A stretch of DNA of 32,000 bases, taken from contig NC_003276.1 in assembly GCF_000009705.1 (NCBI RefSeq), forward strand, positions 180,001 through 212,000, in the 5' to 3' direction. Both the position numbers and the translations under genes were made by a program. Under the pieces are notes generated by a model, which saw only the letters and a program-made list of their open reading frames with translations, was not told the origin of the DNA and made no database searches. Each line of letters begins with the position of its first letter. Position 1 is the first letter of the stretch. The stretch comes from Nostoc sp. PCC 7120 = FACHB-418 (GTDB lineage Bacteria; Cyanobacteriota; Cyanobacteriia; Cyanobacteriales; Nostocaceae). Positions 10,007 to 32,000 of the stretch are shown one piece after another.

Positions 10007-13000
10007 ACAATTACAACCATTATCAAGTCGGTGGTAGTTTACGAGAAGGTACAGAAATTTACGTTCATCGTCAAGCCGATAGTGATTTGTATACAGGACT
10101 AAAAGCGGGAATATTTTGCTATGTTCTCAACTCTAGACAGATGGGTAAATCAAGTTTAAGAGTGCGTACCATGTCGCGCTTACAGTCAGAAGGATTTGTT
10201 TGTATTGCCTTTGAAATGCGTGAACTCTGCGTTTATCAAGTGAGTGCAGATGAATTTTATGGAGGATTTGTCAGCCATTTTGCTAGTGAACTCAACATTG
10301 AAATTGATTTAGAATCTTGGTGGTCTCAAAATGCTTTGCTACATCCATTTTTACGGTTGAGTAAATTTGTGGAAGAAGTTTTACTAGCAAATATATCTCA
10401 GCAAATTATCGTTTTTGTAGATGAAATTGACAGTATTCTCAATCTAGAATTTAAGGATGATTTTTTTGCTTTTGTAAGAGCCTGCTACAACAAACGCGCT
10501 GATAAACCCCAATTTCAGAGGTTAACTTTTGCCCTATTTGGTGTGGCGACACCCACTGATTTAATCGCCGATAATAAATTTACACCACTGAATGTAGATA
10601 GTAGCGCCATCGAACTTACAGGTTTTCAATTGTCCGAAGCCAAACCCCTGGAACAAGGCTTAATTGAGGTGGCTGCAAATCCTACCAAGGTGATGGCAGA
10701 AATTTTAGCTTGGACTGGTGGACAACCATTTTTAACTCAATGGTTATGTCAACTAATTAATACAGCAAATACTTTTATTGCATCGGGATGGGAAAATTCA
10801 GCAGTAGAAGCGATTGTGCGATCGCAAATGATCGAACATTGGTTAGCAAATGACCGACAGCAGCATTTTCAAACAATTCGCGATCGCATTCTTCACAATA
10901 AATCTTTGGCTTGTTGGTCATTAGGACTTTATCAGCAATTGCTCAATAAAGGGGAACTTTCGGCTGAAGATAGCTGGGAGTTGATGCAGTTGTGTCTTTC
11001 TGGTTTGGTTGTCAAACGTCAAGGTAAATTGAGTATCTATAACCGCATCTACGCCACTGTTTTTGATTATACCTGGACAGAAAAAGCTTTGCGTGCTATC
11101 CGTCCCTATGGTGCAGAACTCGCCGCTTGGGAAATTTCTCAAGATGCTCAATATTTGCTGCAAAATGAAGCATTGCAGTGGGCGTTGGTTTGGGCAAAAG
11201 GATTGAGTTTAAGTCATAGTGATTATCAATTTTTATCTGCTAGCCAAGCCCAAGAACTAGCGATCGCCCAATCCAAAACCCAAACAGCGATACAACAAGA
11301 AACTCAAGCAATTCAGCGATTGAAAACCGTACAACATCAAACCAAAAAACGATTGCGAATTGGGGCGATCGCGCTTTCTGCGGCTGTAATTAGCACCATC
11401 GGCACGTTTTTCTACTTCCAGCAATCAGAACAGCAACTCAGAACTAATGCAGATATCTTAAATTTAGAACGCGAAGGAAGCCGAATTTTGCAAGTGCGTG
11501 CAGATGGCAATCAACTGAAGGATTTGCTAGGGGCGATGAAATTAGCGCAAAGACTCAAACAATTGACCAAACAGCATTCTTTTAAACATTTACCCACCCA
11601 CACGCCTTTATTTGCCCTACAAGCTGTTCTTGCCACGATTAATGAGCAGAATCGTTGGCATTTAGATAGTCCGGCGGTAGCGATCGCCTTTAGCCGTGAT
11701 GGACAAAAACTAGCAACTGGAGGAGAAGACGGGGCGATAACTCTTTGGACACTACAGGGAAAGAAAATTCAGACAATCAAAACTCACAAAACTAAAACTC
11801 TCCAAGGCTTCCCGATTTCCATTACTTCTTTGAGTTTTAGTCCTGATGGTCAGTATATTTTATCTGCTGACTCCGACTATGAAATCCAGGTTTGGCATCT
11901 CAAAACAGGTACTCTTGTCAATAAGCTAAAACTCGATCAAGAAACTCTTAGCGATGTCCAATTCACAAATGACAACAATATTGTGTTAGTCAACGACTTT
12001 GGCAGAGTTGCAGTCTTGAATTTGCAATGGAAATTACTTTACACTAGGCAGATTGCTCCACCTCAACAGGGTATTGACCTTACTATTAGTTTAGAAGGTG
12101 ATGCAATTGTCTTTATCAATGCCCAAGGAAAACCGGAAGTTAGAGACATTAAAACTGGTACGTTGATCAAAACCTATCCTAACATCACCCATAATTTAGG
12201 CGATCGCCTTTGGCACAGTTTCCACACAAAAGATGGTGCTTACATTTCTGCCAATCTCAACACCCTCAAATTGTGGCATCCAGACGGAACTTTACAAGCA
12301 GAAATCAAAACTCATCAATTGCTGGTTTCTGGTTTTAGTTCTAGCTTTGATGGTTCTGTCATCGCCACGAGTCACCCAGATGGAATGCTGAAACTCTGGA
12401 AAATCCATCCTCAAAAAATCTCCACTACATTAACACCACCAATACAAACTCCCCGTGTGGTTGTGGGAAATCAACAACGCATCAACCGCATACAACTACC
12501 GGGTGAAAAACTAAAAATTGCTGGGGCAAAATCTGATGCTCAAAATAGAATTATGGATGCCACTCTGAGTCCTGATGGACAGATAATTGCTGCCACAAAA
12601 TTCAATGGAGAAATGACGTTATATAAGGCAGATGGCAGCGAACTCAGAACAATACAAACTAATCTTCCGGAAAGTATGATTAAAGTTAGTCCCGATGGTT
12701 CGCGTTTAGTTTTGTTATCAATTCGTCAGCAAAAAATACAATTCAGGTTAGCAAATGGGGATTTAATTCAAGAAATGGATGCTGCTCATTATAAACCAGG
12801 AATCGAATTTAGTCCCGATGGCAAAGAGTTGGCAATCGCTGGTAATGAACCCGATAAAATTCAACTTTGGAGTAGTGAAGGTAAATTTTTAAAGACTATC
12901 AAAGATGCAGATTCGCTCTACTTTAGCCCCAACAATCAAACCTATATCACAGTAACTTCTGCCAATAACCCCATACCCACCCTGCGCCTATGGAGAAGAG

Positions 13001-13578
13001 ACGGAAAACTGCTCAAAACCCTATCAGGACAACCCCATGAAATCACAGCAATGGGATTTTCCCCCAGTGGTCAGTTTATGGTTGGCGATCGCTTTGGTAA
13101 ACTGGTAGTCTGGTCGGCTGAAGGTAATCTTATACAAACCCTCAATCATGGCGCAGCAATTATTGATATCGCTCTCCGTAACGACGGACAGCAGTTGGCG
13201 ACGGTGGGAATTAATCAAAATATCAAACTTTGGCGTTCTGATGGTACATTCATTCGCACACTTGAAACCAATCAAATTGGTCGCTTTGAATTTAGCCCAG
13301 ACGGGCAATTGTTGATTGCCAAGACTATTGATAGCACAATCCATATCTGGCAAGCCGACGGCACACCTATTACTCGCATCCCTATGGGTGGTGCATTTAA
13401 TACATTCCTCAATTTTACCCCAGATGGCAACCGTTTGATTTCTAGCAGTGGGTCAATGCTCTATTCTTTGAACCTGAATCTTGACGATCTCCTCACCCAA
13501 GGTTGCAATTGGCTGGGCGACTATTTCCAGAACCATCCCCAGGAGTTGCAGCAACTTCCATCTTGTCATAACCAATAG
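10003..13578 (+). CDS. AAA_35 NTPase - single TM helix - ~14 WD40 repeats (1191 aa)
   Basis: The N-terminus YVHRQADSDLY...YVLNSRQMGKSSL (Walker A) and IIVFVDEID (Walker B) are typical of the AAA-like domain family. The hydrophobic segment LRIGAIALSAAVISTIGTFFYF spans aa ~452-472 (nt 11356-11418). From ~11665 onward there are repeated FSPDGQ...x(15-20)...LW blades. Confidence 0.85.
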   Translation: MNNYNHYQVGGSLREGTEIYVHRQADSDLYTGLKAGIFCYVLNSRQMGKSSLRVRTMSRLQSEGFVCIAFEMRELCVYQVSADEFYGGFVSHFASELNIEIDLESWWSQNALLHPFLRLSKFVEEVLLANISQQIIVFVDEIDSILNLEFKDDFFAFVRACYNKRADKPQFQRLTFALFGVATPTDLIADNKFTPLNVDSSAIELTGFQLSEAKPLEQGLIEVAANPTKVMAEILAWTGGQPFLTQWLCQLINTANTFIASGWENSAVEAIVRSQMIEHWLANDRQQHFQTIRDRILHNKSLACWSLGLYQQLLNKGELSAEDSWELMQLCLSGLVVKRQGKLSIYNRIYATVFDYTWTEKALRAIRPYGAELAAWEISQDAQYLLQNEALQWALVWAKGLSLSHSDYQFLSASQAQELAIAQSKTQTAIQQETQAIQRLKTVQHQTKKRLRIGAIALSAAVISTIGTFFYFQQSEQQLRTNADILNLEREGSRILQVRADGNQLKDLLGAMKLAQRLKQLTKQHSFKHLPTHTPLFALQAVLATINEQNRWHLDSPAVAIAFSRDGQKLATGGEDGAITLWTLQGKKIQTIKTHKTKTLQGFPISITSLSFSPDGQYILSADSDYEIQVWHLKTGTLVNKLKLDQETLSDVQFTNDNNIVLVNDFGRVAVLNLQWKLLYTRQIAPPQQGIDLTISLEGDAIVFINAQGKPEVRDIKTGTLIKTYPNITHNLGDRLWHSFHTKDGAYISANLNTLKLWHPDGTLQAEIKTHQLLVSGFSSSFDGSVIATSHPDGMLKLWKIHPQKISTTLTPPIQTPRVVVGNQQRINRIQLPGEKLKIAGAKSDAQNRIMDATLSPDGQIIAATKFNGEMTLYKADGSELRTIQTNLPESMIKVSPDGSRLVLLSIRQQKIQFRLANGDLIQEMDAAHYKPGIEFSPDGKELAIAGNEPDKIQLWSSEGKFLKTIKDADSLYFSPNNQTYITVTSANNPIPTLRLWRRDGKLLKTLSGQPHEITAMGFSPSGQFMVGDRFGKLVVWSAEGNLIQTLNHGAAIIDIALRNDGQQLATVGINQNIKLWRSDGTFIRTLETNQIGRFEFSPDGQLLIAKTIDSTIHIWQADGTPITRIPMGGAFNTFLNFTPDGNRLISSSGSMLYSLNLNLDDLLTQGCNWLGDYFQNHPQELQQLPSCHNQ

Positions 13579-13772: not shown

Positions 13773-16700
13773 TTAATGCTGCATCTCTACATCTCGTTTA
13801 TTCAAGATTGCCTCAACTTTAGTATTCGCATTCTCAAAAGTCTCTAACAGTTGGGGGGTTATTTTGTTGACTGTTATCTTGCCAGTCTCAACTTTCAAAA
13901 GTACATCTCCATCTTTTTGAGCAATGACTAAATCTTTGCGATCTCCGTTATAAGCCAAATCGTAAACTTTGCCCCTAACCACAGTAAAACCATCTTGGGC
14001 AGGCTGTCCCCAGACCATGCCAATCCTTTGCGCCATTTCGGTGAGCCGACTGATGTTGTGCAAGTCTTGCTTATCCTGTTGCATTGCCGCATAAGCTTTA
14101 TCCGATAACGCCTGACCTGCTTTGAAAGCATTGCCTATTTCCACAATGCGTTTTTTGTATTCATCAGGCTTGCCTAAGTTATGAGCATTGTCATACCAAT
14201 TCCTCAAGTCTTCAATAGTGACGGGAGGATTTGGCGAAGTCTTTTGTTGAGAATCTACAACTTGATTGTTAACTGTTGGCTCTCGATTTGATGCAATTTG
14301 ATTGACTATTGACGGCTGTGACGGTTGTAAAGACTGAGGGCGGTTCGGCAGCGATCGCACCATATCCTGATACTCCTGTTGCGACTCAATCACTGCACCA
14401 AACTTCTTAGTCATCGCCGCACTAACCGACTCAGGTATAGATGAATTGACCAAGTTGAAAACCGCTAGTCCTTTTTTAGTTTCTAGGGGAACTTCGTCTG
14501 GTAGTATTTGGGCGATCGCCACATTCTTCTGCTGCAACCATTGACAGACGGTCGCCACCTTGTGATTGTCCACGGCCATGCGCGTGATGCCAAGCATTTT
14601 ATCTTCAGGACTAGCGAACAATATGGTGGGACGCTCTTTGATTTTTTGCAATATCGGTGCAGTCTTTTCTAAGAGAAGTTGCTGTTCTTGGTTGAGTGCT
14701 TGAGTGCCAAAAGCCTGAGATTCCTTTGTCCAACTTTTGGGATACTTAATACTCTCTGGGTCTACTTTCAGTACAGTGGTCGAGAAATTACTTTGGAGGG
14801 TTGCTTGCACCTGTGTCAACTTTCCCGGTTGTAAAGCGCCTAGTTCTTTAAGAGCTTCCTTGTCTTTTTTGAAAAACAACACACCCAACGGCTGACCATT
14901 GAGAAACACTGCATCTTTGACCTGAGTTTGTGATACTTCTAACGTCAGCTTGCGATAGTTTTCATCATTAAATGTTTGCCCTTTGTAGTCATACTGTCCA
15001 ATATTATTGATTCTTAGTAGATTTCCGTTTGGCGATTCAGCCAGCACAAATCCCAGATTTTCTTTGTCAGAAATTGTTTTTAACTTGAGGTTGAAGGGTT
15101 GACCATCTTTAACAAGATTAAATGGTTGCAGCTGTTTGATTGAATCAGCATCTAATTCCCCTAGAGTTTTACCGTCTAGTTTGATTTTCACCGTTTGACT
15201 AGGTACTGATTTTGTGCCAATCTCTAATTTCACCGACTCAGCATTGAAGGTTTGTCCTGCATAAGCGAACTTGCCAATTTCTCTGATAGTGAAATTTACC
15301 TCCGGCTTTCCTGGAACTGCAATCGTGGCATTGGCTGTGTATGTTTCACCAGGGATAATATTAGCCAGAGCTTGAGTACCAATTGGTAGCTGTCCGGTTC
15401 TTGGTTCGAGCGATGCGTATTCCTTGTACTCGCCATTAGTATCCTGTACGAATACTAATCTTGAAGCGTGGCGCTCATGTCCTCTTGGATGGTGAGATGC
15501 CCTGATTTCAATCGGGTATTTCTCGTCGGGATGCCAAACTTTATCTTTGAAATTGTTCGCCTCGCTGCCCAATGTCCCTAATGTCATTTCATCAAATTGC
15601 AATTGTCTCAGTCGGGAAACAATTTCTTCTCCAAATGCAGCAAACACAAAGTTGGGTATTTTCTTTTGGATTGCAGTTTGAGACTGTTTATTTTCCTCCT
15701 CTCCATCATTTTTACGTTCCAGTTCATCCTGTCTTGCCGCACCAACACTCCATGCGGCGGCGGCGGCTCCTAATCTCTGCTCTGATGGTATACTTTCTCG
15801 GAACTTCTGGGCGTACTGGTTTGCCTTATCAAACATCAGCTTTGTCTGACTACGGCTTAGTTCTGGCTTCAATTCCACAAGTAGAGCATTATTGGTAGCC
15901 ATTCCTGGCTTGAGGTTGTAATCAGCCACTGACTGCTGACTCACTGTCCCCAGCTTGCGGTACAAGGGTTTGCCATCATCTGTCAGTTCATTATCAATTT
16001 GCGCTCTTGCTAATAATTTATGCGGTCGTTCTTTGCTGGGGTCGCTGTCTATCGTTTCCAGTTTCAGGTTTATCGTATGTGCCTTCCAAATACCGGGATG
16101 CCCATAGCGCGTGAGGTTCGTCACCTCGATTTGGGTTCCTTGACTCGTTTGGATCACCGCAGACGGCCCTTGCTCAGTTTCGCGCTTTATATCTATCCGC
16201 ACTGCCGCATTGAACAGTCGGTCATACTCGAATTTGGTGGCGATCGCTTCTAATCTCTGCTGCGATGTGAACTCTACTCCTTTAAATAAATCTTGAAACT
16301 GAACGATAGGACGTGATTCTAATTGTGATTGCTGAAAATATTTATTAGTTTGGATAATTAATAATTCTACTGGGGAATAGCCTTTAGTTTTGATACCCTC
16401 GTCTAAATAAATTGTTTTTAATTTCTTATCTTTAATGTAATTAACATCTCGATATAAGTAGCGATTATTCTCCTTAATTAACCCCATTTCTGGTGTTTTA
16501 GAGCTTTTAAACAGGTCTACCGCTATCTGGTTTTGAAAACAACCTTCTTCAATCATCTTCCGGTACATTTGGCGATTAACTTTCATCGCCTGAAGTATGA
16601 TTTGGGGCGCTCTCTCGGTCTGGGCTAGAGCTACAAAATCTTCCATGTATGATTTGTACTCTTGCCTAATTGGTTTAGGGCGTTCTTGGTTTTCTTGGGA

Positions 16701-18563
16701 GAATAATTCTTGATAGTGAGATGACACCTTATCTAAATATTCAGACTTCTGTTCTGGTGTCCCATAAGTTTTTAAGATTTCAATTTCTGATTCTAGGGCT
16801 TCCAGTGCGGTAACTTGATTATTAATTACCCCAACACTGATACTATCGCTCATGTGGATAGCTATTTCTTCAAAGGGTGGTTGTGTGCCATCGGGTAGAT
16901 AAAACGATTGTTTTTTCAGTTTGACTGTGGGAGCATAAGCATTTTCAACTTGGTTCTTGTACTCGGCTTCTGCCGTAAAATTAGGGTATAAGCTTGCTAG
17001 GGCTACACCAATACAGTCACCGTCAAAGTCTCTACCCTGGCGTTCTGACTCGGTTTCTAATGGGTCTAATTCGTCGGTATCTATTCCTTGCGCTTCCAGA
17101 GTAGCAATTCTAGCCTTGATGCGAGAGTGGTCTTCATCATTTACGACAATAACACCTTTTAAATTCGCACCGTCTGGTGCAAGTCTATCTTTAACAAGTT
17201 TATTAGCTGAAACGCACAAACCGTTAGAATTGAGAAAAGGTGAACGGAAGTTTAAAACTTTTTCCCCATCATCTAACCAAGGTACGCATATTTCACCGTT
17301 TTTCAGTTCCTTTGATGGGATTATCATCCCTCGGTCAAATGTTAAAGTGCGCCCGATTGCAATATCTTTCCATTCATTCTGTACAAATCGACTCAGTTCC
17401 TTCCTTACTTTCTCAGTTTCTAAAAGCTGATTATGTCCTCCAATTAAGTCAGCTTTAATAATTCTGTACATTAACAAATCTTCTTTCGGAGATTCGTCAA
17501 GTTCATCGCTTACTTCAAATTCTTCTGATTCTTTATTCCGGGTTAGTAGTTCTAATTGTTTTGCTAATTTTCCATCAGTATTTTGTTCAGTAATTTGTTG
17601 CTGTATAGCAGCTTTTTGTTCCTCAGTGAAAGCCTTACGTTTTTCATACTTTTCACAGTAAAGTTCTGCTACTTTCCTGGGGTCTGACTGCATTTCGGCT
17701 AATTTCAGGGCTTGTGCCTCTAGTTCCTCAGCGAAGTCCTTAATCCCTTGAGTAAATGAGGCTAATAACTGAGATATCGCTGTTTTACCGCGCTCGGATT
17801 GAGACTTTTCGCCTAGCCATATTTTTTGTTTGTATAACCCTGGTCGGATCTGTGGCTTGCTTGCTCCATCAGGGCGATCCTTATCTGTGCCTTTGAAGCT
17901 GGATAGAGGGAGGATTAAATCTATTTTGGGTTCATTATTTGGGTTGGCATATTCTATTTTATCTAATCTATAGGGTCGTAGTGTCCCTTTCCCAAACCTG
18001 TATTTAGTATCTGTTCCATCAGCATCTTTCCATCCAAAGCGATGCTGAATCACATGATAACTTTTATCTGGTTGTTCTTCGTGTTTAGTTAACTTTTCAT
18101 AAAGTTGGGTTGATATTTGTCCATAGCAATCTCCCACCATTTTATAGGCTAAATCATTTGATAATATATTTCCATTATCACCATTAGAATCATCAACAAT
18201 TAAAATATTTAATTGTTGATGAATTGAATTTTTACAACCACCTAGAAAGATGGAGCCGTAAGCTCCTCTGTCTTTCCTATCAGGGCATAATTTATCAATT
18301 ATTTCCAGGCATTCAGGTGAACCATATAGTAATCTAGTTTTGGATGATAATAACAATATATGTCCATCTGGGTGATTTTTTAAATCTTCTGGTGTACTAT
18401 GTTCATCTATATGTCCAAAAGAGAATTGTTTATCTGGAAAGTAAAACTCTAGTAGAGTATTATCTAATTTTTCAGTTAAAATTGAGTCAGGATTCTTATT
18501 ATCTCCGTCAGTATGAATCCATTGGTTTAGTCTGGTATCAAAATGCTTAAACTCAAGAGACAT
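13773..18563 (-). CDS. Giant single-chain double-psi beta-barrel polymerase, eukaryotic-RdRP / YonO-like (1596 aa)
   Basis: Uninterrupted 4.8-kb ORF with ATG start. It has colinear motifs GDCYGQIS (aa 144-151), VIQHRF..YRFGKGTL (171-195), LNFRSPFLNSNGL (437-449) and GRDFDGD (510-516; GAC TTT GAC GGT GAC at 17016-17030 on the minus strand). The C-terminal ~1000 aa are unassigned and include a tandem domain duplication. Coding status is near-certain; the function is inferred from motifs. Confidence 0.65.
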   Translation of the reverse strand: MSLEFKHFDTRLNQWIHTDGDNKNPDSILTEKLDNTLLEFYFPDKQFSFGHIDEHSTPEDLKNHPDGHILLLSSKTRLLYGSPECLEIIDKLCPDRKDRGAYGSIFLGGCKNSIHQQLNILIVDDSNGDNGNILSNDLAYKMVGDCYGQISTQLYEKLTKHEEQPDKSYHVIQHRFGWKDADGTDTKYRFGKGTLRPYRLDKIEYANPNNEPKIDLILPLSSFKGTDKDRPDGASKPQIRPGLYKQKIWLGEKSQSERGKTAISQLLASFTQGIKDFAEELEAQALKLAEMQSDPRKVAELYCEKYEKRKAFTEEQKAAIQQQITEQNTDGKLAKQLELLTRNKESEEFEVSDELDESPKEDLLMYRIIKADLIGGHNQLLETEKVRKELSRFVQNEWKDIAIGRTLTFDRGMIIPSKELKNGEICVPWLDDGEKVLNFRSPFLNSNGLCVSANKLVKDRLAPDGANLKGVIVVNDEDHSRIKARIATLEAQGIDTDELDPLETESERQGRDFDGDCIGVALASLYPNFTAEAEYKNQVENAYAPTVKLKKQSFYLPDGTQPPFEEIAIHMSDSISVGVINNQVTALEALESEIEILKTYGTPEQKSEYLDKVSSHYQELFSQENQERPKPIRQEYKSYMEDFVALAQTERAPQIILQAMKVNRQMYRKMIEEGCFQNQIAVDLFKSSKTPEMGLIKENNRYLYRDVNYIKDKKLKTIYLDEGIKTKGYSPVELLIIQTNKYFQQSQLESRPIVQFQDLFKGVEFTSQQRLEAIATKFEYDRLFNAAVRIDIKRETEQGPSAVIQTSQGTQIEVTNLTRYGHPGIWKAHTINLKLETIDSDPSKERPHKLLARAQIDNELTDDGKPLYRKLGTVSQQSVADYNLKPGMATNNALLVELKPELSRSQTKLMFDKANQYAQKFRESIPSEQRLGAAAAAWSVGAARQDELERKNDGEEENKQSQTAIQKKIPNFVFAAFGEEIVSRLRQLQFDEMTLGTLGSEANNFKDKVWHPDEKYPIEIRASHHPRGHERHASRLVFVQDTNGEYKEYASLEPRTGQLPIGTQALANIIPGETYTANATIAVPGKPEVNFTIREIGKFAYAGQTFNAESVKLEIGTKSVPSQTVKIKLDGKTLGELDADSIKQLQPFNLVKDGQPFNLKLKTISDKENLGFVLAESPNGNLLRINNIGQYDYKGQTFNDENYRKLTLEVSQTQVKDAVFLNGQPLGVLFFKKDKEALKELGALQPGKLTQVQATLQSNFSTTVLKVDPESIKYPKSWTKESQAFGTQALNQEQQLLLEKTAPILQKIKERPTILFASPEDKMLGITRMAVDNHKVATVCQWLQQKNVAIAQILPDEVPLETKKGLAVFNLVNSSIPESVSAAMTKKFGAVIESQQEYQDMVRSLPNRPQSLQPSQPSIVNQIASNREPTVNNQVVDSQQKTSPNPPVTIEDLRNWYDNAHNLGKPDEYKKRIVEIGNAFKAGQALSDKAYAAMQQDKQDLHNISRLTEMAQRIGMVWGQPAQDGFTVVRGKVYDLAYNGDRKDLVIAQKDGDVLLKVETGKITVNKITPQLLETFENANTKVEAILNKRDVEMQH

Positions 18564-19621: not shown

Positions 19622-19835
19622 AATTATCGCCTCATTTAATTGTTGAGTTAGTTGAGAGAACAGGTGTAATTGATTTCTCAACTACACCAACTTCTGGAAA
19701 ATCTACCTAACTCAAGAAGTTTAAATGTGCTTTCAAAAAAGAACTAGCAACTTTGGTACTGAAAAAATCGGTACTGGAGTTGCTAGTAAAATCAGCGAGT
19801 TTATGCTATTGAGAACTGGGGAAAGGAGAAGGATT

Positions 19836-20241: not shown

Positions 20242-21444
20242 TTAATTTGCTAATGTTAATTGTTCGCGTTTGTTGTTTGAGTCAACCATTTTGAGTAACT
20301 GTTGATTCAGGTAACTCTGAGCCGAAACGTAGAGGTTATCCCAAATAACTGGGTTACGACAGATTTTGCTACCAACAGTATTGAGAGCCAGTTTCTCTGA
20401 CACCAAATATTTACGGTAGTAGTTATTCCACAAATGTTGTAGAAAATCCTCCGCGAAATCATCAAAAGGGATAATCCAGTTGTACTGTTCATCCAAAAAC
20501 ACCCGGTAGGCAGCAACAATGGGCATAGCAATATCAGCCGGCGCACTAAAACCGAACGAATATCTGCTATCGGGCAATAGTGTATTCTTGCGTGGGTCAA
20601 TTGAGGCGAGGTCAACTACTCCCTTTCTTTTAGGCTTGGTGATATGCTCCTCGATTACCTGAAATAGTCGTTGCTCAATCCATAACCCCTTGGACAATAA
20701 CGGTAATAGTTTCGACAGCCGTTGTCTTTCAGCCTCGCTCAATGACGGCGTATTGCTAACAGGTGGGTGTTTGGTTCTGCTTTTAGAGTCTGGATTGTAT
20801 TTATTCCTATCCAAACAATTCATTAATTTGATGAGATGGTTGACGTTACACTGTGGACTCTTGGGCGCACCGCTTTGGTTCTGGTAGTATGCAACTCTGA
20901 ACTTTGTTTTTTGCTCACGTTCTAGTTGTGCTAAGAACTGCTTGAGGAATTTATAGTCACCCTTGGCATTTACTTTTGAACGGGCATCCACTGGGGCAGA
21001 TGTATTTGATGCCAAGGCTATATCCTTAGCCTCATCTTCAGTTAAACCAATATGAATTGTGACTTTGACTCTAGCTTCGGTTAGGTCATATTTATAATTT
21101 CTTGCTTGCTCAAAAGCTAAAACTGTATGCCCACCATTAATGATGCCATCACTACCACCCTCATTAGCTTCTAATACCTCTAACTCTAGCTGTGTCTTTT
21201 TGCTGTTGGGTTTGACTTTATTGGCACACAATACGATACCACTATGACGCTCAAAGAATTTTTCTGGTTGAGTCGTCACCGAGTCAAATATTTGTCTGTA
21301 TGTTGCACTTTTCTTGTTCGGCTCACGAATATTCGGCTCTAGGGGTAGGTCGGCTGGAAATGTGTCTACATGAGCAGTAGCAATAATACAGTTAGGATTT
21401 GCATTGAAATACTGGTCTACTATTAAAGTCCAATTCTTGGGCAT
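20242..21444 (-). CDS. AIPR-family (abortive infection phage resistance-like) protein (400 aa)
   Basis: NIREPNKKSATYRQIFDSVTTQPEKFFERHSGIVL....GSDGIINGGHTVLA follows the AIPR N-terminal pattern (N.R....I..T....PE.F...N.GI.....IVNG.QT). GIINGGHT was verified at nt 21124-21147. It is shorter than many AIPR proteins. Confidence 0.6.
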   Translation of the reverse strand: MPKNWTLIVDQYFNANPNCIIATAHVDTFPADLPLEPNIREPNKKSATYRQIFDSVTTQPEKFFERHSGIVLCANKVKPNSKKTQLELEVLEANEGGSDGIINGGHTVLAFEQARNYKYDLTEARVKVTIHIGLTEDEAKDIALASNTSAPVDARSKVNAKGDYKFLKQFLAQLEREQKTKFRVAYYQNQSGAPKSPQCNVNHLIKLMNCLDRNKYNPDSKSRTKHPPVSNTPSLSEAERQRLSKLLPLLSKGLWIEQRLFQVIEEHITKPKRKGVVDLASIDPRKNTLLPDSRYSFGFSAPADIAMPIVAAYRVFLDEQYNWIIPFDDFAEDFLQHLWNNYYRKYLVSEKLALNTVGSKICRNPVIWDNLYVSAQSYLNQQLLKMVDSNNKREQLTLAN

Positions 21445-23956: not shown

Positions 23957-25198
23957 TTAATATAACTTCTTGCTAGTTAAATATCCATTTTTCACCCTCA
24001 CCTGGGCTAACGAGGAAGGAGCGGGTGGCTGAACATAATAATCAGGGACTAAAGGTTTATCTTGGCGGTCATATCTTAGATTCAAATCCAGCATTTTGAT
24101 ATGACTAATGTGAGATCCCCAAACATCACATACTCTATCTCCTAATCCCATTGTGTCCAGATATTTAGGAAGTTCCATCCCACCATTCCAGCACATGGGA
24201 ATACCTTCATTGTCAAAATGTTGGGTTAGCTCGTGACGCACAAAACTTGCTGTTCCCCCGCAAATTAAAACCTCATCCATCGCAGCTATCCCTTTTAGCC
24301 ATCGTAGTAGAGCGCGAGTGTATTCTTCACGGACTAGCGGTAATATTTTCTCAAATAACTCTACATCCAAATTTATGTCTTGTTGTTTATTTTTCCGTGA
24401 TAATCGGCGCAATGAATCAAAATCTCCTTCTCCCGCTTCTACTATTGCCTTAATTAAACGTGAATCTTCTTTAGATAAGCCTACAGCAGTTCTCTCAACA
24501 AATTGACTGACTATCCAATTCATCCCTAAATCTGTCGATTCCGCTTTTGATGAGTTACCTTTCATTGAAAGTGTAAAACTAGCATTCCTATACCCCAACA
24601 TCAACATTCCTATGTTCTTTTGAAAATAGTTGACGTTGACATTACGACTGCGATACGCCAATAGCCCAGACCCCTCCAAAGCCCCGTTAAAACTTCGGAT
24701 TTTGCATTTGAACTTCCCTGTTGGGGTTTGTACACCTATCTTAAATACCTGTAAGAGTTGTCTGCCTAAATGATTAGCATCTGCTATTTCCCCTGGTGGC
24801 AGCAATATCTGTAAATAAATCTCCAAATCGTCTTTTATCCCCAATCCCAACCGACGACAAGCTAACCACATCAATGCGGCTATCTTTGGCATGGCATACT
24901 TGTATTTCAAGTCTTTTATCGCTGATGACCCAGCAAACATACTTTTCGACAGCGCTCCTAAGACATAGTATTCTTCACCAATACCTATCCACACTGTGTT
25001 GTCTTGCACTGAGGATTGGCTTGATAAAAACTCAATGGAACCGTAGCCTACATCTGCTATCTCCGGTTCCATTGGTATTACTATTGGCACTCCATCTGGA
25101 TACACCTGTGCTAAAGCTTTAGCTGTACTCGCCCCTAAATCAAGTGTTAATGCAACTTTTGTGTACTCTTTGGAGTCCGAGTTGCTTTTTCTATTCAT
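23957..25198 (-). CDS. Actin-fold ParM/StbA-like plasmid segregation ATPase (413 aa)
   Basis: The N-terminal phosphate-1-like LTLDLGASTAKA, the mid-protein MLMLGYRNASFT and the adenosine-motif-like VLICGGTASF occur in the order expected for the actin/ParM fold. The sequence is divergent. Confidence 0.6.
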   Translation of the reverse strand: MNRKSNSDSKEYTKVALTLDLGASTAKALAQVYPDGVPIVIPMEPEIADVGYGSIEFLSSQSSVQDNTVWIGIGEEYYVLGALSKSMFAGSSAIKDLKYKYAMPKIAALMWLACRRLGLGIKDDLEIYLQILLPPGEIADANHLGRQLLQVFKIGVQTPTGKFKCKIRSFNGALEGSGLLAYRSRNVNVNYFQKNIGMLMLGYRNASFTLSMKGNSSKAESTDLGMNWIVSQFVERTAVGLSKEDSRLIKAIVEAGEGDFDSLRRLSRKNKQQDINLDVELFEKILPLVREEYTRALLRWLKGIAAMDEVLICGGTASFVRHELTQHFDNEGIPMCWNGGMELPKYLDTMGLGDRVCDVWGSHISHIKMLDLNLRYDRQDKPLVPDYYVQPPAPSSLAQVRVKNGYLTSKKLY

Positions 25199-26839: not shown

Positions 26840-28546
26840 ATGGCATACGCGATCGCCCGATTAAAAAAATTAAAGCGGGGCAATATATCAGGGAGTGCAT
26901 CTCACACCGCACGAGAACGTGAAACTCCTAACGCAGATCCCACCCAAAAAAATATTAGGTTCATCGGTAGCCTTGACCCGGATGAACGATTAGAGGATTT
27001 AGTCTTAGCCAAGATAGGGGACTCGGAGCAGAGGCGAAAAATTCGCACTGATGCAGTTTACTGTGTAGAGTTTTTGCTAAGTGCCTCCCCCAGTTATTTC
27101 CGTCCTGATTGCCCAACCAATGCTGGTTACTATAAACCCCAAAAATTGGATGATTGGGTAGAAGCGACTCACCAGTGGTTGGCGGATGAATATGGCGATC
27201 GCATTGTCAGAGCCGAGTTACACCTGGATGAAGCCACCCCCCATATTCACGCTTACTTTGTGCCAATTGATGATCAAGGGCAATTGCGCTGTAATCATTT
27301 CTTTGACGGCAGGCAAAAAATCCACGCCTTTCAAGATTCTTACTACAACACGATGCACCTGATTGGGCTGGAGCGTGGCATCAAGGGCAGTAAAGCCAAG
27401 CACCAGGACATCAAGGATTTTTACCGCATTGTGGAGGAGGGGCGAGATTTAGAGGTTGATGAGCTAAGTGCAGCGCAATTAAAGGCTAAAGCGGCTGACC
27501 GAGACAGAGCGACTGAGCGTAAACAGGAGATGGAAGCTACAGCCAAAGCTCTAGCGAGTGAAAATGAAGAGCTACGGCGACGAATTGAGCAATTAGAGCA
27601 AGATAATCAGCAATTACGACTCAAGAGCGAATGGTCAACTGATTTAGCTTTGGATGATGTTGCTTGGGAGTTGGGACTGTGGCGTAAAGGCAATGAGTGG
27701 GTGGGAAGAAACCACATCATTAATATAGATGGCTCTGGATTTACTGACTTTGGCAATGGTTTAGTATTGTCGGGTTATGGGGCGCTCGACTTGGTGAAAC
27801 ACGTTAATCAATGCAACCAAACCAGTGCCATCGCATGGTTGGGGGAACGATTTGGGAAAGCTGGCGCAGAACGTACAGCGATCGCTCATGCTAAAAAAGT
27901 TGCGGCTGACATTATCCAGACTCAAAGCGCACCCCAATTTACCCTACCCGTTGAGGAAAAATCTAACTGGTCAAGAGTTGAAAATTACCTTACCCAAAAA
28001 CGGGGAATCCCCTCTGATTGCGTACAGATGCTACATAACCAAGGGCTAATTTATGCCGACTCAAAAGCAAATGCCGTGTTTGTCATGCGGGATCTCGACG
28101 GGAATACCAAAGGCGCATTTTTACAAGGGACAGCTAATACATTCTCTGGTTATGAATTAGGTACTAAGCGCCGCTCTTGTTGGTTTTACTTTTCTTTAGG
28201 TGGCAAAGCAACTGATAAAAGCTCTCAAGCAGTGCTGTGTGAATCTCCCATTGATGCTATTTCACTGTTTGTACTGGAATATCACGTTAAAGGAATACCA
28301 GACAACAGAACACTTTACATGGCAGTAGACGACACCTCAAGTTTACCTTTTGAACGATTACGTCATGTTCCTCATGTACAAGTAGCTTTTATTCAACCAA
28401 ATATGGCACGGACTGTTAAAGAACTACTGCCAAAATCGAAGTTACTCAAGTGTGAAACTCTTGATTGGAATACGCAGTTAGTCAATTCCTCTCGTCAATT
28501 ACAACAACGGCGTTTACAACAAAACAATCAAGAATTAGAGCTATAG
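26840..28546 (+). CDS. MobV-family relaxase (Mob_Pre) fused to DUF3991 and Toprim domains (568 aa)
   Basis: The N-terminus MAYAIARLKKLKRGNISGSASHTARERE and HLDEATPHIHAYFVP (HxDE..PHxH, nt 27221-27250) are MobV hallmarks. A coiled coil spans aa ~205-262. ENYLTQKRGIP...GLIYAD...AVFVMRDLDGN is DUF3991-like. The Toprim E (LCESPIDAISL) and DxD (MAVDDT) are present. Confidence 0.85.
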   Translation: MAYAIARLKKLKRGNISGSASHTARERETPNADPTQKNIRFIGSLDPDERLEDLVLAKIGDSEQRRKIRTDAVYCVEFLLSASPSYFRPDCPTNAGYYKPQKLDDWVEATHQWLADEYGDRIVRAELHLDEATPHIHAYFVPIDDQGQLRCNHFFDGRQKIHAFQDSYYNTMHLIGLERGIKGSKAKHQDIKDFYRIVEEGRDLEVDELSAAQLKAKAADRDRATERKQEMEATAKALASENEELRRRIEQLEQDNQQLRLKSEWSTDLALDDVAWELGLWRKGNEWVGRNHIINIDGSGFTDFGNGLVLSGYGALDLVKHVNQCNQTSAIAWLGERFGKAGAERTAIAHAKKVAADIIQTQSAPQFTLPVEEKSNWSRVENYLTQKRGIPSDCVQMLHNQGLIYADSKANAVFVMRDLDGNTKGAFLQGTANTFSGYELGTKRRSCWFYFSLGGKATDKSSQAVLCESPIDAISLFVLEYHVKGIPDNRTLYMAVDDTSSLPFERLRHVPHVQVAFIQPNMARTVKELLPKSKLLKCETLDWNTQLVNSSRQLQQRRLQQNNQELEL

Positions 28547-28653
28547 TTGCGTAAAAGTCAAGCAACTCTAGTACTGTTTTTTTCAGTACCAAAGTAGCTA
28601 GTAAAGAATTTTGGGTGTCTCTATTATCAGGATGAAATTCATACAAAAGCCTG

Positions 28654-30273
28654 ATGAATAATGAGTTAATCAAGCAAATCTTCTCTCTAATCAAACTTAA
28701 CAATAAGCTGATAGCTGTCGAGTCTCCATTACAAGAAAGACTCAAACTTTTGACAAATCTTGCCAGTCAATGCCAGCAACATAACATTAACTGTTACCTA
28801 TGGACGCTGGAAGATGACGCGCTACACCAGTTAGAGACTAATAAGGAGGGATTAACTTTACATCCAATTAACCAGTATCAGGCGATCGCCAAAAACCGAC
28901 GCGAAAATTACTTTGAAATTCTCCAATTCTGGAAAACTACCAATTTACAAGGCATTCTCATACTTGAGGGTATATTTCCCTGGCTGGGAGAATCTACCAC
29001 TGACCCTGATTTTTTCTTAACTGCCGAGTGGATCAAGTCAGCCCTAATTAACCTGAAGTTGTACAATTGCAATGCCCAAAAGACAGCAATACTTTTAGGC
29101 CCTAACGCTAGTCTGTCATCTGATATTGCACCCTATATTCCGACACTCATTCAACAACTGCCAATTATCGAGGAAATTAAAACTCACTTACCCCAAGTAT
29201 TACCTGATTACAGCGCAGACGAAATTCATGCGACTGCGATCGCCTCAGTAGGAATGTACTTAGCAGATATCGACTATGGCATTCGACAGGCGATTGCGCC
29301 TGAAGTTACACCACTGGAGTTAAGACAAAAGCTTTCGGCTTACAAAATAGAACTGTTCAAGCGGATTTATAATATTCAATTTCTCCAACCCCCTAGCACT
29401 CCTATCGGTGGACTGGAACTGATGCAGCAGGCATTTAAAACTTACAAGCGCCTGTTAACGACACTGGCGAAAGCTTACAATCTGCGCTTACCCAAGGGGA
29501 TTTTACTTATCGGCCCACCGGGAACTGGAAAATCATACTCGGCTAAAGCAAGTTCGGCACAGTTAGGACTGCCTCTGATTATCTTGGAGTGGGGGAATTT
29601 CCGCAGCTACGGCAATCTTGCTGAGTACAAATTAAAAAACTTACTCGCACTGGTAGACCGAATCAATCGTGTCATCCTCTATCTTGATGACTTTGATAAG
29701 GGATTCGCTGGGGATGATGATTTATCCAAACGCCTAGCTGGTATGCTTTTGACCTGGATGCAAGAGCGCACTAGTGAGGTTTTAATTATCGCTTCGGCTA
29801 ACAATATTGAATGGCTACCACCAGAGTTAACCAGAAGTGGTCGCTTTGACGAGATTTTCAAAGTCGATTTACCCAATTATGGAGAACGGCACGAAATATT
29901 CAAGATTCACTTAGCCCGTTTTGATGCTCGGTTCCGCAATGGAGGTGATGGGTACACCGAACCTGAATGGAAAAGGTTGCTCAAAGCCACACAACGCTGT
30001 GTTGGTGCGGAGATTGGGGCAATTGTCGAACGTGCCGCCGTCTTTACTTTCTGTCAAATGTTCAGTGAAGATGTTTTGTCAGTTAGTGAACTTCCACCGT
30101 TAGAAATTACGCTCTCAGCATTGTTAACTGCAAGGCAGAACATGAATCCTCTGGCCATCCGTGAGGCTGACCGGGTTGAAAGTATGCGGAATAAAGCGGC
30201 TTTGCAAGGTCAAGCATCTAGTCCGGTCGATTCATCTATATATAGTCTCGGCAATATCGATATTTTTGGATAA
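28654..30273 (+). CDS. Ycf46-like AAA+ ATPase (539 aa)
   Basis: Walker A GPPGTGKS (nt 29512-29535), Walker B ILYLDDFDK, sensor-1 IIASANN and Arg finger RSGRFDEIF are present. The ~270-aa N-terminal domain and overall layout resemble cyanobacterial/plastid Ycf46. Confidence 0.85.
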   Translation: MNNELIKQIFSLIKLNNKLIAVESPLQERLKLLTNLASQCQQHNINCYLWTLEDDALHQLETNKEGLTLHPINQYQAIAKNRRENYFEILQFWKTTNLQGILILEGIFPWLGESTTDPDFFLTAEWIKSALINLKLYNCNAQKTAILLGPNASLSSDIAPYIPTLIQQLPIIEEIKTHLPQVLPDYSADEIHATAIASVGMYLADIDYGIRQAIAPEVTPLELRQKLSAYKIELFKRIYNIQFLQPPSTPIGGLELMQQAFKTYKRLLTTLAKAYNLRLPKGILLIGPPGTGKSYSAKASSAQLGLPLIILEWGNFRSYGNLAEYKLKNLLALVDRINRVILYLDDFDKGFAGDDDLSKRLAGMLLTWMQERTSEVLIIASANNIEWLPPELTRSGRFDEIFKVDLPNYGERHEIFKIHLARFDARFRNGGDGYTEPEWKRLLKATQRCVGAEIGAIVERAAVFTFCQMFSEDVLSVSELPPLEITLSALLTARQNMNPLAIREADRVESMRNKAALQGQASSPVDSSIYSLGNIDIFG

Positions 30274-30275
30274 TT

Positions 30276-30836
30276 ATGCAAATTAAGATCATTAATTCCG
30301 AGAAGGATTTATACGTTGCTGCTTTTAAGCTACTGAATATACTGGGGCCTGTCGCTGGAGTATCAATCATCATTGCTACTGTGGCGATCAGTTACGTCGA
30401 AACTCGTCCCCAGCAGTTACCCCTCACTCACATCCTCACCCAAAACAACCAGACATTTAAGCTAGAAGTCGCCTCTACGCCAGAGCAATTAGAGAAGGGG
30501 CTGAAATTTCGAGCATCCTTATCCAGAGATCGCGGAATGTTATTTAATCTGGGGGGCGAAATTTACAATGTACCTTTCTGGATGTACAAGGTAAATTTTC
30601 CATTGGACATCTTTTACATCAAGGACAATGTGGTGACAACGGTGGTTTACAACGCCCAACCTTGTCACAAACTTCCATGCCCCATTTATAAAGGTCGGGT
30701 GGACAATCAGGTGCTTGAGCTTCCAAACGGCGTTGCCAATATCAAGGTAGGGGATAGGCTCAAAATCCAGCCGTTATCAACTTTGCCCAAAAATGATATC
30801 GGTTTTGATAGCGGCGATTCTTTGAGAAGTAAGTAG
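30276..30836 (+). CDS. DUF192 domain protein with N-terminal TM helix (186 aa)
   Basis: The start is 2 nt after the AAA+ stop. LEKGLKFR...RGMLF......FWMYKVNFPLDIFYI......QPC....CPIY......VLELPNG fits the DUF192 pattern. The hydrophobic segment is GPVAGVSIIIATVAISYV. Confidence 0.75.
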   Translation: MQIKIINSEKDLYVAAFKLLNILGPVAGVSIIIATVAISYVETRPQQLPLTHILTQNNQTFKLEVASTPEQLEKGLKFRASLSRDRGMLFNLGGEIYNVPFWMYKVNFPLDIFYIKDNVVTTVVYNAQPCHKLPCPIYKGRVDNQVLELPNGVANIKVGDRLKIQPLSTLPKNDIGFDSGDSLRSK

Positions 30837-30859
30837 ATTGTCAAAGTATTGCTATCTAT

Positions 30860-31423
30860 TTGATATCAGTGGTGCTGTCAGTGAATCAACTAATCATAAT
30901 TTTCATACTAGCTCTGATTTTGGCTTGCTTGTTGTTGCTCGGAAGCAAGAAAAGCCGATATCTGCCAAAAAACATCAGGCATCAAAGACGGATTACAAAA
31001 GGTGAAGCTGTACTAGAGAGAATCAACAAAATCATTGCAGAACACCAAGAATCACTACCTGCTGTACTAGCATATCTCCGCAAGATAGATCCGCTTGTTT
31101 TTGAAGAATTGCTTCTGTCTAGTTTTCAGCGTCAGGGTTACAAAATAAAACGTAACCAACGTTACACCGGGGATGGTGGGATAGATGGTCATGTTTGGCT
31201 GCATGGTCAAATGTATCTGGTGCAAGCAAAACGTTATAAAGATTCTATTAAAGCCGAACATTTAGAGGAATTTGCTCAAGTTATTGTTCGTCACAAGGCG
31301 AGTGGTGGGTTCTTTGTTCACACTGGCACGACTCTGGCTAAGTCTAAATCTGTTTTGCAGCAGCATCCAGAAATCAAGTTGCTGAGTGGACAAAGGTTGG
31401 TGGATTTTCTTAGATGTTTATAG
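30860..31423 (+). CDS. Mrr-type PD-(D/E)xK restriction endonuclease domain protein with N-terminal TM helix (187 aa)
   Basis: FEELLLSSFQRQGYKIKRNQRYTGDGGIDGHVWLHGQMYLVQAKRY is the Mrr_cat core (D...GIDG...QxK). The N-terminal LIIIFILALILACLLLLG is hydrophobic. The start is uncertain (TTG 30860 or GTG 30869/30872/30881). Confidence 0.8.
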   Translation: MISVVLSVNQLIIIFILALILACLLLLGSKKSRYLPKNIRHQRRITKGEAVLERINKIIAEHQESLPAVLAYLRKIDPLVFEELLLSSFQRQGYKIKRNQRYTGDGGIDGHVWLHGQMYLVQAKRYKDSIKAEHLEEFAQVIVRHKASGGFFVHTGTTLAKSKSVLQQHPEIKLLSGQRLVDFLRCL

Positions 31424-31653: not shown

Positions 31654-32000
31654 GTGCGGGGATTGTGTGTTAATTGATAGTAGGCTTACTCAGATAAGGA
31701 AACACTTAGTCGAGTGATTGCCTACGGCAAGCGATTACGCCATCGCTACCAGTTGTCATCCAATTGGTGAGAGAATGAGGATCTGGGCTATCTGTTTTTA
31801 TCAGGTAGCTAGTACGGATCATGAGAGAAGACACAACAAGGCAAATCGATTTAGTGTTGTCCACACCACTGCCGTTGACACTTCATCCGGCGGCAGTGTA
31901 TTTGTCGAGTTTGAGTCCTACTTCACGGCGGACAATGGAAAAGGCATTGAATGTAATTGCACGATTGCTAACTAGCAACCAATGCGATGCAATGTCCTTA
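31654..32000 (+). ncRNA. Possible structured RNA; 5' part of a group II intron is one option (truncated by window end)
   Basis: Begins GTGCG (31654-31658), the group II 5' consensus. It is followed by several hairpins, including GCTATCTG/CAGGTAGC, which needs a G-U pair on the + strand only, and CACTGCCG/CGGCAGTG. No convincing protein frame was seen. Domain V and any RT ORF would lie outside the window. Confidence 0.2.

Follow-up and report, generated by a model that had tools for sequence, protein, structure and literature searches.

Do three tightly spaced genes in the transfer region of the Nostoc sp. PCC 7120 = FACHB-418 plasmid pCC7120alpha work together as a single defense system? The genes lie within a 32,000-nucleotide stretch of this plasmid (contig NC_003276.1, positions 180,001 to 212,000 of the forward strand; hereafter, the window, to which all positions refer unless another locus is named), and they encode, in order, an AAA+ ATPase (AAA), a DUF192 protein, and a nuclease with an Mrr catalytic domain (Mrr). 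An earlier reading made without database searches (the sequence-only reading) had proposed that the ATPase and the nuclease act together in one three-gene system. We found that AAA and DUF192 form an invariant, apparently undescribed gene pair, and that Mrr is an ordinary member of a widespread and unstudied nuclease family. The pair is apparently a conserved accessory component of cyanobacterial conjugation clusters that has so far not been described, whereas Mrr is a separately acquired cargo gene of a widespread plasmid family and does not belong to the conserved pair.

The three open reading frames (ORFs) are located on the same strand, 3' of a relaxase gene, with intergenic gaps of 2 nt between AAA and DUF192 and 23 nt between DUF192 and Mrr. 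These positions, which the sequence-only reading had already given, were confirmed, and the relaxase was assigned to the MobV family. The MobV gene is the first gene of a same-strand transfer cluster and lies upstream of the AAA gene. The genes at the center of the analysis are as follows:

26840-28546, + strand: MobV-family relaxase (Pfam Mob_Pre, 5.7e-36, and DUF3991, 1.1e-21; NCBIfam MobV, 1.2e-51, 175 bits versus a cutoff of 100)
28654-30273, + strand: AAA+ ATPase, 539 aa (Pfam AAA, PF00004, 4.4e-21, residues 283-405)
30276-30836, + strand: DUF192 (UPF0127/COG1430) protein, 186 aa (Pfam PF02643, 8.2e-23, residues 61-164)
30860-31423, + strand: Mrr_cat nuclease, 187 aa (Pfam PF04471, 5.2e-25, residues 73-183)
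31821-32000, + strand: 5' end of a tyrosine site-specific integrase gene that runs off the window (the translation matches the N termini of the integrases of Nostoc sp. MS1 and locus L034)

The association of AAA with DUF192 was conserved in every genomic locus in which it could be scored. We scored 80 genomic loci retrieved by tblastn with the AAA protein, 75 of which have downstream DNA, and the DUF192 gene was found downstream of AAA on the same strand in all 75, at a distance of 6 to 672 nt and over AAA identities of 55 to 94%. In protein-level searches, 34 plasmids, from Nostocales and Chroococcidiopsis, had an AAA homologue that was at least 50% identical, and on 32 of them the two genes were adjacent; the adjacency is kept in Allocoleopsis at an AAA identity of 33%. 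In relatives, the end of AAA and the start of DUF192 share 4 nt.

The Mrr gene showed no such conservation. It was found next to the pair in 1 of the 80 loci (L012, from Nostoc parmelioides) and on one plasmid, that of Nostoc sp. MS1. When plasmids were searched at the nucleotide level, the MobV-AAA-DUF192 block was conserved on plasmids of Nostoc and Trichormus, and the match reached Mrr only in Nostoc sp. MS1. Plasmids of Halotia, Calothrix NIES-4105, and Calothrix PCC 7716 contain both the pair and an Mrr gene, but the two are separated by 28 to approximately 250 kb. An alignment of the junction revealed a segment of approximately 2.2 kb, made up of Mrr and the tyrosine integrase, that is present in the window and in MS1 and missing from the plasmids of UHCC 0302 and a Lobaria cyanobiont; where present, it sits between DUF192 and the type IV secretion system (T4SS) genes. 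An integrase also follows Mrr in L012, as it does in the window and in MS1, and the MS1 integrase orthologue matches Pfam Phage_integrase at 9.3e-33. At locus L034, an integrase gene is found at the same site, between DUF192 and the gene for a hypothetical protein of approximately 200 aa (hyp200), with no Mrr gene (integrase coordinates, 13092-14048 in L034 and 13041-14000 in L001). Given the junction alignment and this integrase without Mrr, we conclude that Mrr is cargo at an insertion hotspot. The presence of an integrase at the DUF192/hyp200 junction in three lineages suggests that this site within the transfer operon could be a hotspot for integrase-associated cargo.

The surroundings of the pair are those of a conjugation cluster. 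In relatives without the insertion, a single strand carries the genes for MobV, AAA, DUF192, hyp200 (polytopic), a second hypothetical protein of approximately 110 aa, and a 940-aa VirB4-like P-loop protein, and the cluster continues with three hypothetical genes, VirB10/TrbI, three more hypothetical genes, a clear type IV coupling protein (T4CP), and a DUF3854/CyRepA-like gene. A MobV homologue is located approximately 100 to 1200 nt 5' of AAA, on the same strand, in most loci in which AAA is at least 65% identical. The clade with 55% AAA identity has no MobV upstream, and hyp200 and the VirB4-like gene are still found downstream. A second gene order was seen for AAA paralogues of approximately 33% identity, namely, T4CP, a hypothetical protein of approximately 105 aa, another of approximately 480 to 500 aa, AAA, and DUF192 in Allocoleopsis (L007), and T4CP, two hypothetical proteins, and AAA in Gloeothece PCC 7424 (L093) and on Tolypothrix plasmid 2 (L092); the two proteins between T4CP and AAA gave no Pfam matches. 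The pair therefore occupies a conserved position within a cluster of relaxase, VirB4, VirB10, and T4CP genes on T4SS-bearing plasmids. The sequence-only reading had offered, as an alternative to defense, a role tied to the adjacent mobilization gene, and this suggestion comes close to the evidence for AAA and DUF192, which are conserved between the relaxase and the T4SS genes. The transfer region of pCC7120alpha (NC_003276) has been described as being of the MPF_C type (MPF, mating-pair formation), with alr7199 as relaxase, alr7206 as VirB4, and alr7213 as VirD4 (PMC8600333, PMC4027160). We found no mention in the literature of alr7200 or alr7201, the genes directly after alr7199. An AAA-DUF192-hyp200-VirB4-like block with an AAA of 55% identity was also found on an 8.6-kb contig (L091, CAZZZY010000222.1) from a metagenome-assembled genome labeled "uncultured Acetobacteraceae," which is most likely a binning artifact rather than an occurrence outside cyanobacteria.

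A partition gene next to the transfer cluster offers a comparison for how the pair evolves:

23957-25198, - strand: ParM/StbA-like partition gene, divergent from the transfer cluster (orthologues are annotated ParM/StbA; no Pfam match at E<=0.01)

Across loci, AAA identity was strongly correlated with that of DUF192 (Spearman rho, 0.92), the VirB4-like protein (0.94), hyp200 (0.87), and MobV (0.85) and was uncorrelated with that of ParM (0.02), a measure of co-divergence that is rough in that the reference sequences came from two plasmids. ParM identity ranged from 50 to 94% across the loci, and its lack of correlation with the adjacent transfer genes suggests that partition modules may be swapped between backbones. 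None of 17 small cyanobacterial plasmids (29 to 92 kb) with MobV homologues of 41 to 61% identity appeared in the complete DUF192 match list, and the two of these that we inspected have ParM and/or CyRepA1, with AAA, DUF192, and T4SS genes all missing from the approximately 16 to 18 kb around MobV. The co-divergence and the absence from small MobV plasmids together indicate that the pair tracks self-transmissible T4SS backbones and not the relaxase alone or the partition genes. By these sequence comparisons, AAA-DUF192 behaves as backbone, unlike defense cargo, which is shuffled.

The AAA protein has the features of a classical-clade AAA+ ATPase (Pfam AAA, 76 bits versus a cutoff of 21). Its Walker A motif (GPPGTGKS, with K293; 29512-29535), sensor-1 (ASAN), and RSGRFD motif in the arginine-finger region are intact. 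The Walker B motif reads hhhhDDFD (D345-D346; 29686-29691), with DD in place of the canonical DE, and the same substitution was found in all 120 homologues examined. Thus, the earlier description of the ATPase motifs as intact stands for the other three and is only approximately right for Walker B, which has a family-wide DD. Walker A, the DD Walker B, sensor-1, RxGRFD, and the sequence FRSYGN at the pore-loop position are invariant in the homologues. The retention of DD in all 120 proteins suggests an ATPase that is tuned, slow, or used as a switch rather than an enzyme in decay.

Matches of AAA in a PDB sequence search (VAT, Cdc48, Afg2, and FtsH) were confined to the AAA core, residues approximately 250 to 510, with E values of approximately 1e-33 to 1e-30 for VAT and Cdc48. 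An AlphaFold2 model built from 53 homologues (mean predicted local distance difference test [pLDDT] score, 75.6; 80 to 90 in the N-terminal 240 residues) was compared with known structures by Foldseek, and the entire chain aligned with the tandem D1-D2 proteins Cdc48/p97, Rix7, Drg1/Afg2, and Pex1/Pex6 over approximately 550 to 600 columns (E, approximately 1e-19). The modeled protomer thus appears to contain two stacked AAA-fold domains, as in tandem AAA+ proteins. We sought a P-loop in residues 1 to 260 and found none. On the basis of the whole-chain alignment of the model and this missing P-loop, the N-terminal domain (residues approximately 1 to 240) is best described as a putative degenerate D1. 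The sequence-only reading had called this domain Ycf46-like. The domain is indeed present, but the label derives from automatic UniRef names only, and the AAA protein matched no NCBIfam or Pfam Ycf46 model. In a search of a representative library, 826 relatives reached E<=1e-30, and many of these aligned over the full length at 30 to 37% identity; the names that they bear at source are either generic or the "ycf46" label that UniRef assigns automatically. The phage family phrog_8638 of PHROGs also matches residues 189 to 523 at 3.7e-59, and so Ycf46-like AAA proteins occur in phages too.

The DUF192 protein scored 80.8 bits against its Pfam model (cutoff, 27). Hydropathy (peak, 2.14; residues approximately 19 to 41) agrees with the Pfam assignment in supporting the earlier description of a DUF192 protein with an N-terminal transmembrane (TM) helix, here a signal-anchor helix encoded at 30330-30398. 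The AlphaFold2 model (pLDDT, 87) has a helix at residues 9 to 42 and a beta-domain at residues 50 to 166, and a fold search with it matched only the DUF192 entries 3pjy and 3m7a. The protein of the latter entry, Saro_0823, has been detected in the periplasm with its signal peptide cleaved (PMC3608174), and the modeled beta-domain of the protein studied here is therefore most likely periplasmic. The literature on DUF192 that we found consists of proteome and annotation mentions only.

The nuclease was likewise correctly recognized as an Mrr_cat protein of the PD-(D/E)xK type with an N-terminal TM helix, on which Pfam (88 bits versus a cutoff of 21), intact catalytic motifs, and hydropathy agree. 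The motifs are GDGGID (D104; 31169-31186) and QAK (residue 122; 31223-31231), and the TM helix (hydropathy peak, 3.19) spans residues approximately 10 to 28 (30887-30943). No ATG is available in the ORF, which could start with TTG at 30860 or with GTG at 30869, 30872, or 30881; the helix is kept with any of these, with a gap to DUF192 of 23 to 44 nt. A stretch with a charge of +8 follows the helix, so the catalytic domain is predicted to face the cytoplasm. The sequence-only reading had regarded the membrane tethering of an Mrr-type nuclease as unusual, and we considered whether the anchor was special to this locus. We rejected this, as an N-terminal hydrophobic helix was found in 107 of 120 Mrr homologues, including the versions on Escherichia coli and Halotia plasmids, and a membrane anchor is thus the norm for this family. 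Homologues matched in more than 2,600 plasmid records, mostly from Klebsiella, Escherichia, and Enterobacter, with the closest at approximately 47 to 48% identity. In the E. coli plasmid pEco1162Ca (locus L010, 4896-5543), the gene is solitary, between trbM/kikA-like and hha-like backbone genes, and it is also solitary on the Halotia plasmid, beside CyRepA1. A PDB sequence search with the Mrr protein returned no relative, and we found no functional study of this TM-anchored family in the literature, where "mrr" is an annotation label only.

Collectively, the gene order, conservation, insertion, domain and fold assignments, and topology signals observed here are probably best explained by a conjugation-associated AAA+ remodeler and a periplasmic DUF192 partner, accompanied by an unrelated, solitary Mrr cargo gene. 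AAA-DUF192 would be a translationally tight two-gene module of the mobilization and mating-pair formation region of large, T4SS-bearing cyanobacterial plasmids. From the position of the pair, we infer its participation in conjugation. AAA would work in the cytoplasm as a ring ATPase resembling Cdc48/p97, in which D1 is degenerate and D2 binds ATP, and its presumed unfoldase activity would serve to remodel or unfold a transfer substrate or component. The most plausible substrate would be the relaxase-DNA adduct, which would need unfolding for passage through the T4SS; a relaxase must unfold for T4SS transit (PMC5826034). Alternatively, AAA could act in the assembly or recycling of T4SS and relaxosome parts. 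DUF192 would act at the envelope or periplasmic side of the same apparatus. Mrr probably acts alone, as a membrane-proximal nuclease whose presumed target would be foreign or competing DNA, or in some other plasmid-selfish role, and is probably expressed by read-through from the transfer operon. In its most specific form, the proposal is that cyanobacterial conjugation may use a dedicated Cdc48-like tandem AAA+ protein, with its degenerate D1 and DD Walker B, either to unfold or remodel the adduct of the MobV relaxase with DNA or to recycle components of the T4SS, with the membrane-anchored periplasmic DUF192 protein as its obligate partner; we put this forward tentatively.

Several observations weigh against a role of the pair in conjugation. 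In many loci, the 10 kb 3' of DUF192 contain no T4SS gene, and adjacency to the mating-pair formation genes is thus frequent but not universal. The linkage and co-divergence could be explained by shared inheritance of the backbone alone. The DD Walker B may point to a slow ATPase or an ATP-binding switch instead of a processive unfoldase, and the pore-loop equivalent is SYG and not the canonical aromatic-hydrophobic-Gly. The DUF192 fold search, which matched only uncharacterized structures, yielded no functional clue. DUF192 proteins elsewhere have no T4SS link, and Ycf46-like AAA proteins are also found without transfer neighbors, for example, in Oscillatoria. The CONJscan MPF_C profiles as described name no AAA or DUF192 component (PMC4027160).

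The reading from which this analysis started, in which AAA, DUF192, and Mrr constitute one nucleoside triphosphate-dependent, membrane-associated restriction or abortive-infection system and the ATPase controls the tethered nuclease, is in our judgment highly improbable. Its attraction lies in the tight same-strand spacing with no terminator predicted between the three genes, the intact catalytic residues of the nuclease, and the combination of ATPase and nuclease, a common defense logic. The promoter and terminator scan gave nothing above chance, however, and is uninformative for this reason. Co-occurrence in other genomes had been proposed as the test of this system, and the three genes do not co-occur as a unit; with Mrr adjacent to the pair in only two relatives, distant from it on three other plasmids, carried on an integrase-associated insertion, and solitary elsewhere, the defense reading fails. 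We further scanned the locus for named systems with the component models of PADLOC-DB v2, NCBIfam, and PHROGs, rather than with the system-level rules of DefenseFinder and PADLOC. No named anti-phage system was matched, in line with the earlier judgment on this gene composition, and the matches were at the domain level only: IetA to the AAA core, and mREase_IV, PDC-S02, and ZorD to Mrr_cat, with none for DUF192. We considered that the AAA protein could belong to IetAS, which pairs the AAA ATPase IetA with the protease IetS, given that the AAA core matches the PADLOC IetA models at 5.8e-16. This identity was rejected; the match is limited to the AAA core, the NCBIfam IteA score of 41.3 bits is far under the cutoff of 510, and no IetS-like protease gene is adjacent. 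A different possibility is that AAA-DUF192 alone is a two-gene module merely parked in the transfer region, acting either in exclusion, at entry or at the surface and against related plasmids, or against phages. Entry-exclusion proteins are typically small, membrane or periplasmic, and encoded inside tra operons, which fits the predicted membrane anchor and periplasmic location of DUF192; the domain-level resemblance of the AAA core to IetA and the presence of other defense-like cargo on the plasmid, an AIPR gene and a STAND-like AAA_35/WD40 pair, would also agree with a defense role. We nevertheless consider such a module unlikely, as the pair co-diverges with the VirB4-like protein and MobV over 55 to 94% identity at a fixed position, unlike mobile defense cargo, and DUF192 has no PADLOC match; we also know of no cytoplasmic tandem AAA+ protein that is an exclusion component.

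The pair could also serve plasmid maintenance or host physiology, through quality control of plasmid-encoded membrane proteins, support of replication or partition, or Ycf46-type regulation. ParM/StbA is found within approximately 1.5 to 4.5 kb of the pair in most loci and directly 5' on the same strand in one clade, a CyRepA-like replication gene lies in the same region, and Ycf46-like AAA proteins occur in nontransfer contexts and in phages. We gave less weight to a role in partition or maintenance for two reasons: AAA identity is tracked by that of the transfer genes but not by that of ParM, and the pair is missing from small plasmids that have ParM, CyRepA1, and MobV and lack a T4SS. In addition, the neighbor that remains conserved at the greatest divergence (33% identity) is the T4CP. 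Such a role, therefore, seems to us improbable, and the conjugation-associated pair with a separate Mrr cargo gene is the reading that we retain.

A perfect palindrome in the intergenic region between MobV and AAA could be a candidate operator of the transfer region or could form an RNA hairpin. GTACTG-T7-CAGTAC has two matches in the window versus 0.01 expected by chance. The exact palindrome was found in 18 related loci (L003, L013-L049), usually approximately 0.6 kb 3' of AAA, just past DUF192, and similar copies are located 5' of hyp200 in MS1 and UHCC 0302. A Pfam scan of the window also identified defense-like cargo on the opposite side of ParM. These further features of the window are as follows:

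28571-28589, no strand: perfect palindrome GTACTG-T7-CAGTAC, MobV-AAA intergenic region (second copy at 19756-19774 with 1 mismatch)
8717-10006, + strand: AAA_35 protein (Pfam)
10003-13578, + strand: AAA_35+WD40 (STAND-like) protein, 1191 aa, with a 4-nt overlap with the preceding AAA_35 gene (Pfam)
13773-18563, - strand: 1596-aa ORF with no Pfam match
20242-21444, - strand: AIPR-family (abortive-infection-type) gene (Pfam)

These findings bear on several questions beyond this plasmid. Conjugation in cyanobacteria is almost unstudied, and the MPF_C class has been defined by computation only; a comprehensive 2025 review of T4SSs mentions neither cyanobacteria nor DUF192 nor any unfoldase. The mechanism that unfolds a folded relaxase before it passes the T4SS is still an open question (PMC5826034), for which a Cdc48-like AAA+ protein encoded between the relaxase and the T4SS genes would be a concrete candidate. 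For DUF192, a large family of which two crystal structures are available but to which no function is assigned, an invariant partner gene provides a context in which function can be tested. If our proposal is true, AAA would be the first classical AAA+ unfoldase dedicated to secretion in a type IV system, and DUF192 would have its first functional context. The analysis also removes a false lead, in that the locus is not a new three-gene defense system, and it draws attention to the membrane-anchored Mrr nucleases, a family that is unstudied and very widespread; many of its more than 2,600 plasmid records are from clinical enterobacteria.

The components of the locus can be compared with several known systems. 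The Mrr protein shares the Mrr_cat domain and its D...QxK motif with E. coli Mrr and type IV methyl-dependent restriction endonucleases, and the PADLOC mREase_IV model matches its catalytic part at 1.3e-12. The alignment spans only positions 147 to 290 of the 317 in the model, and the protein lacks the N-terminal winged-helix DNA-recognition domain of E. coli Mrr, in place of which it has a TM helix and a basic linker; it is also shorter (187 aa versus approximately 300 aa). Its closest relatives are uncharacterized, TM-anchored "restriction endonuclease" genes for proteins of approximately 165 to 250 aa on plasmids of cyanobacteria, Enterobacterales, Xanthomonas, and Rhizobium. The DUF192 protein has the same fold as Saro_0823 (3M7A) and R01717 (3PJY), with TM-scores normalized to the target of 0.70 to 0.80 and sequence similarity of approximately 1e-9 to 1e-10, and those proteins are likewise periplasmic or exported. 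They are, however, soluble, signal-peptide-cleaved, and chromosomal, with no function assigned, whereas the protein encoded here has a long anchor helix that looks uncleaved and its gene is coupled to an AAA gene.

Ycf46 is in the same length class as the AAA protein (approximately 500 to 560 aa) and has the same architecture of an N-terminal domain and one AAA domain. Ycf46-type cyanobacterial proteins align with it over the full length at 30 to 37% identity, and UniRef automatically names several homologues "ycf46"; this comparison was made through automatic names rather than a curated Ycf46 sequence, and one protein so named, P0374, is itself a plasmid-borne paralogue. Bona fide Ycf46 is chromosomal or plastid encoded, and its known links are with photosynthesis and CO2 physiology rather than with DUF192 or a T4SS. 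With the type II AAA+ proteins (Cdc48/p97/VAT, Rix7, Afg2/Drg1, and Pex1/Pex6), the AAA protein shares the whole-chain fold, Walker A, sensor-1, and RxGRFD. It differs from them in having no N-terminal substrate or adaptor domain, a D1 without a P-loop, a DD Walker B, and SYG as the pore-loop equivalent, as well as in being encoded in a plasmid transfer region, and overall identity is only approximately 15 to 18%. EccA of type VII and ClpV of type VI secretion are cytoplasmic ring AAA+ proteins that are encoded in secretion-system clusters and are thought to remodel substrates or components. The likeness to them is one of functional analogy only; they belong to different AAA+ subfamilies and have different domain architectures, and we know of no T4SS counterpart of such accessory AAA+ proteins. 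The arrangement of the locus agrees with the MPF_C clusters, for which pCC7120alpha is the model. The published description of this class comprises eight specific profiles, without an AAA or DUF192 component (PMC4027160), and the layout is the same, a MobV relaxase gene with VirB4-like, VirB10-like, and T4CP genes after it on one strand.

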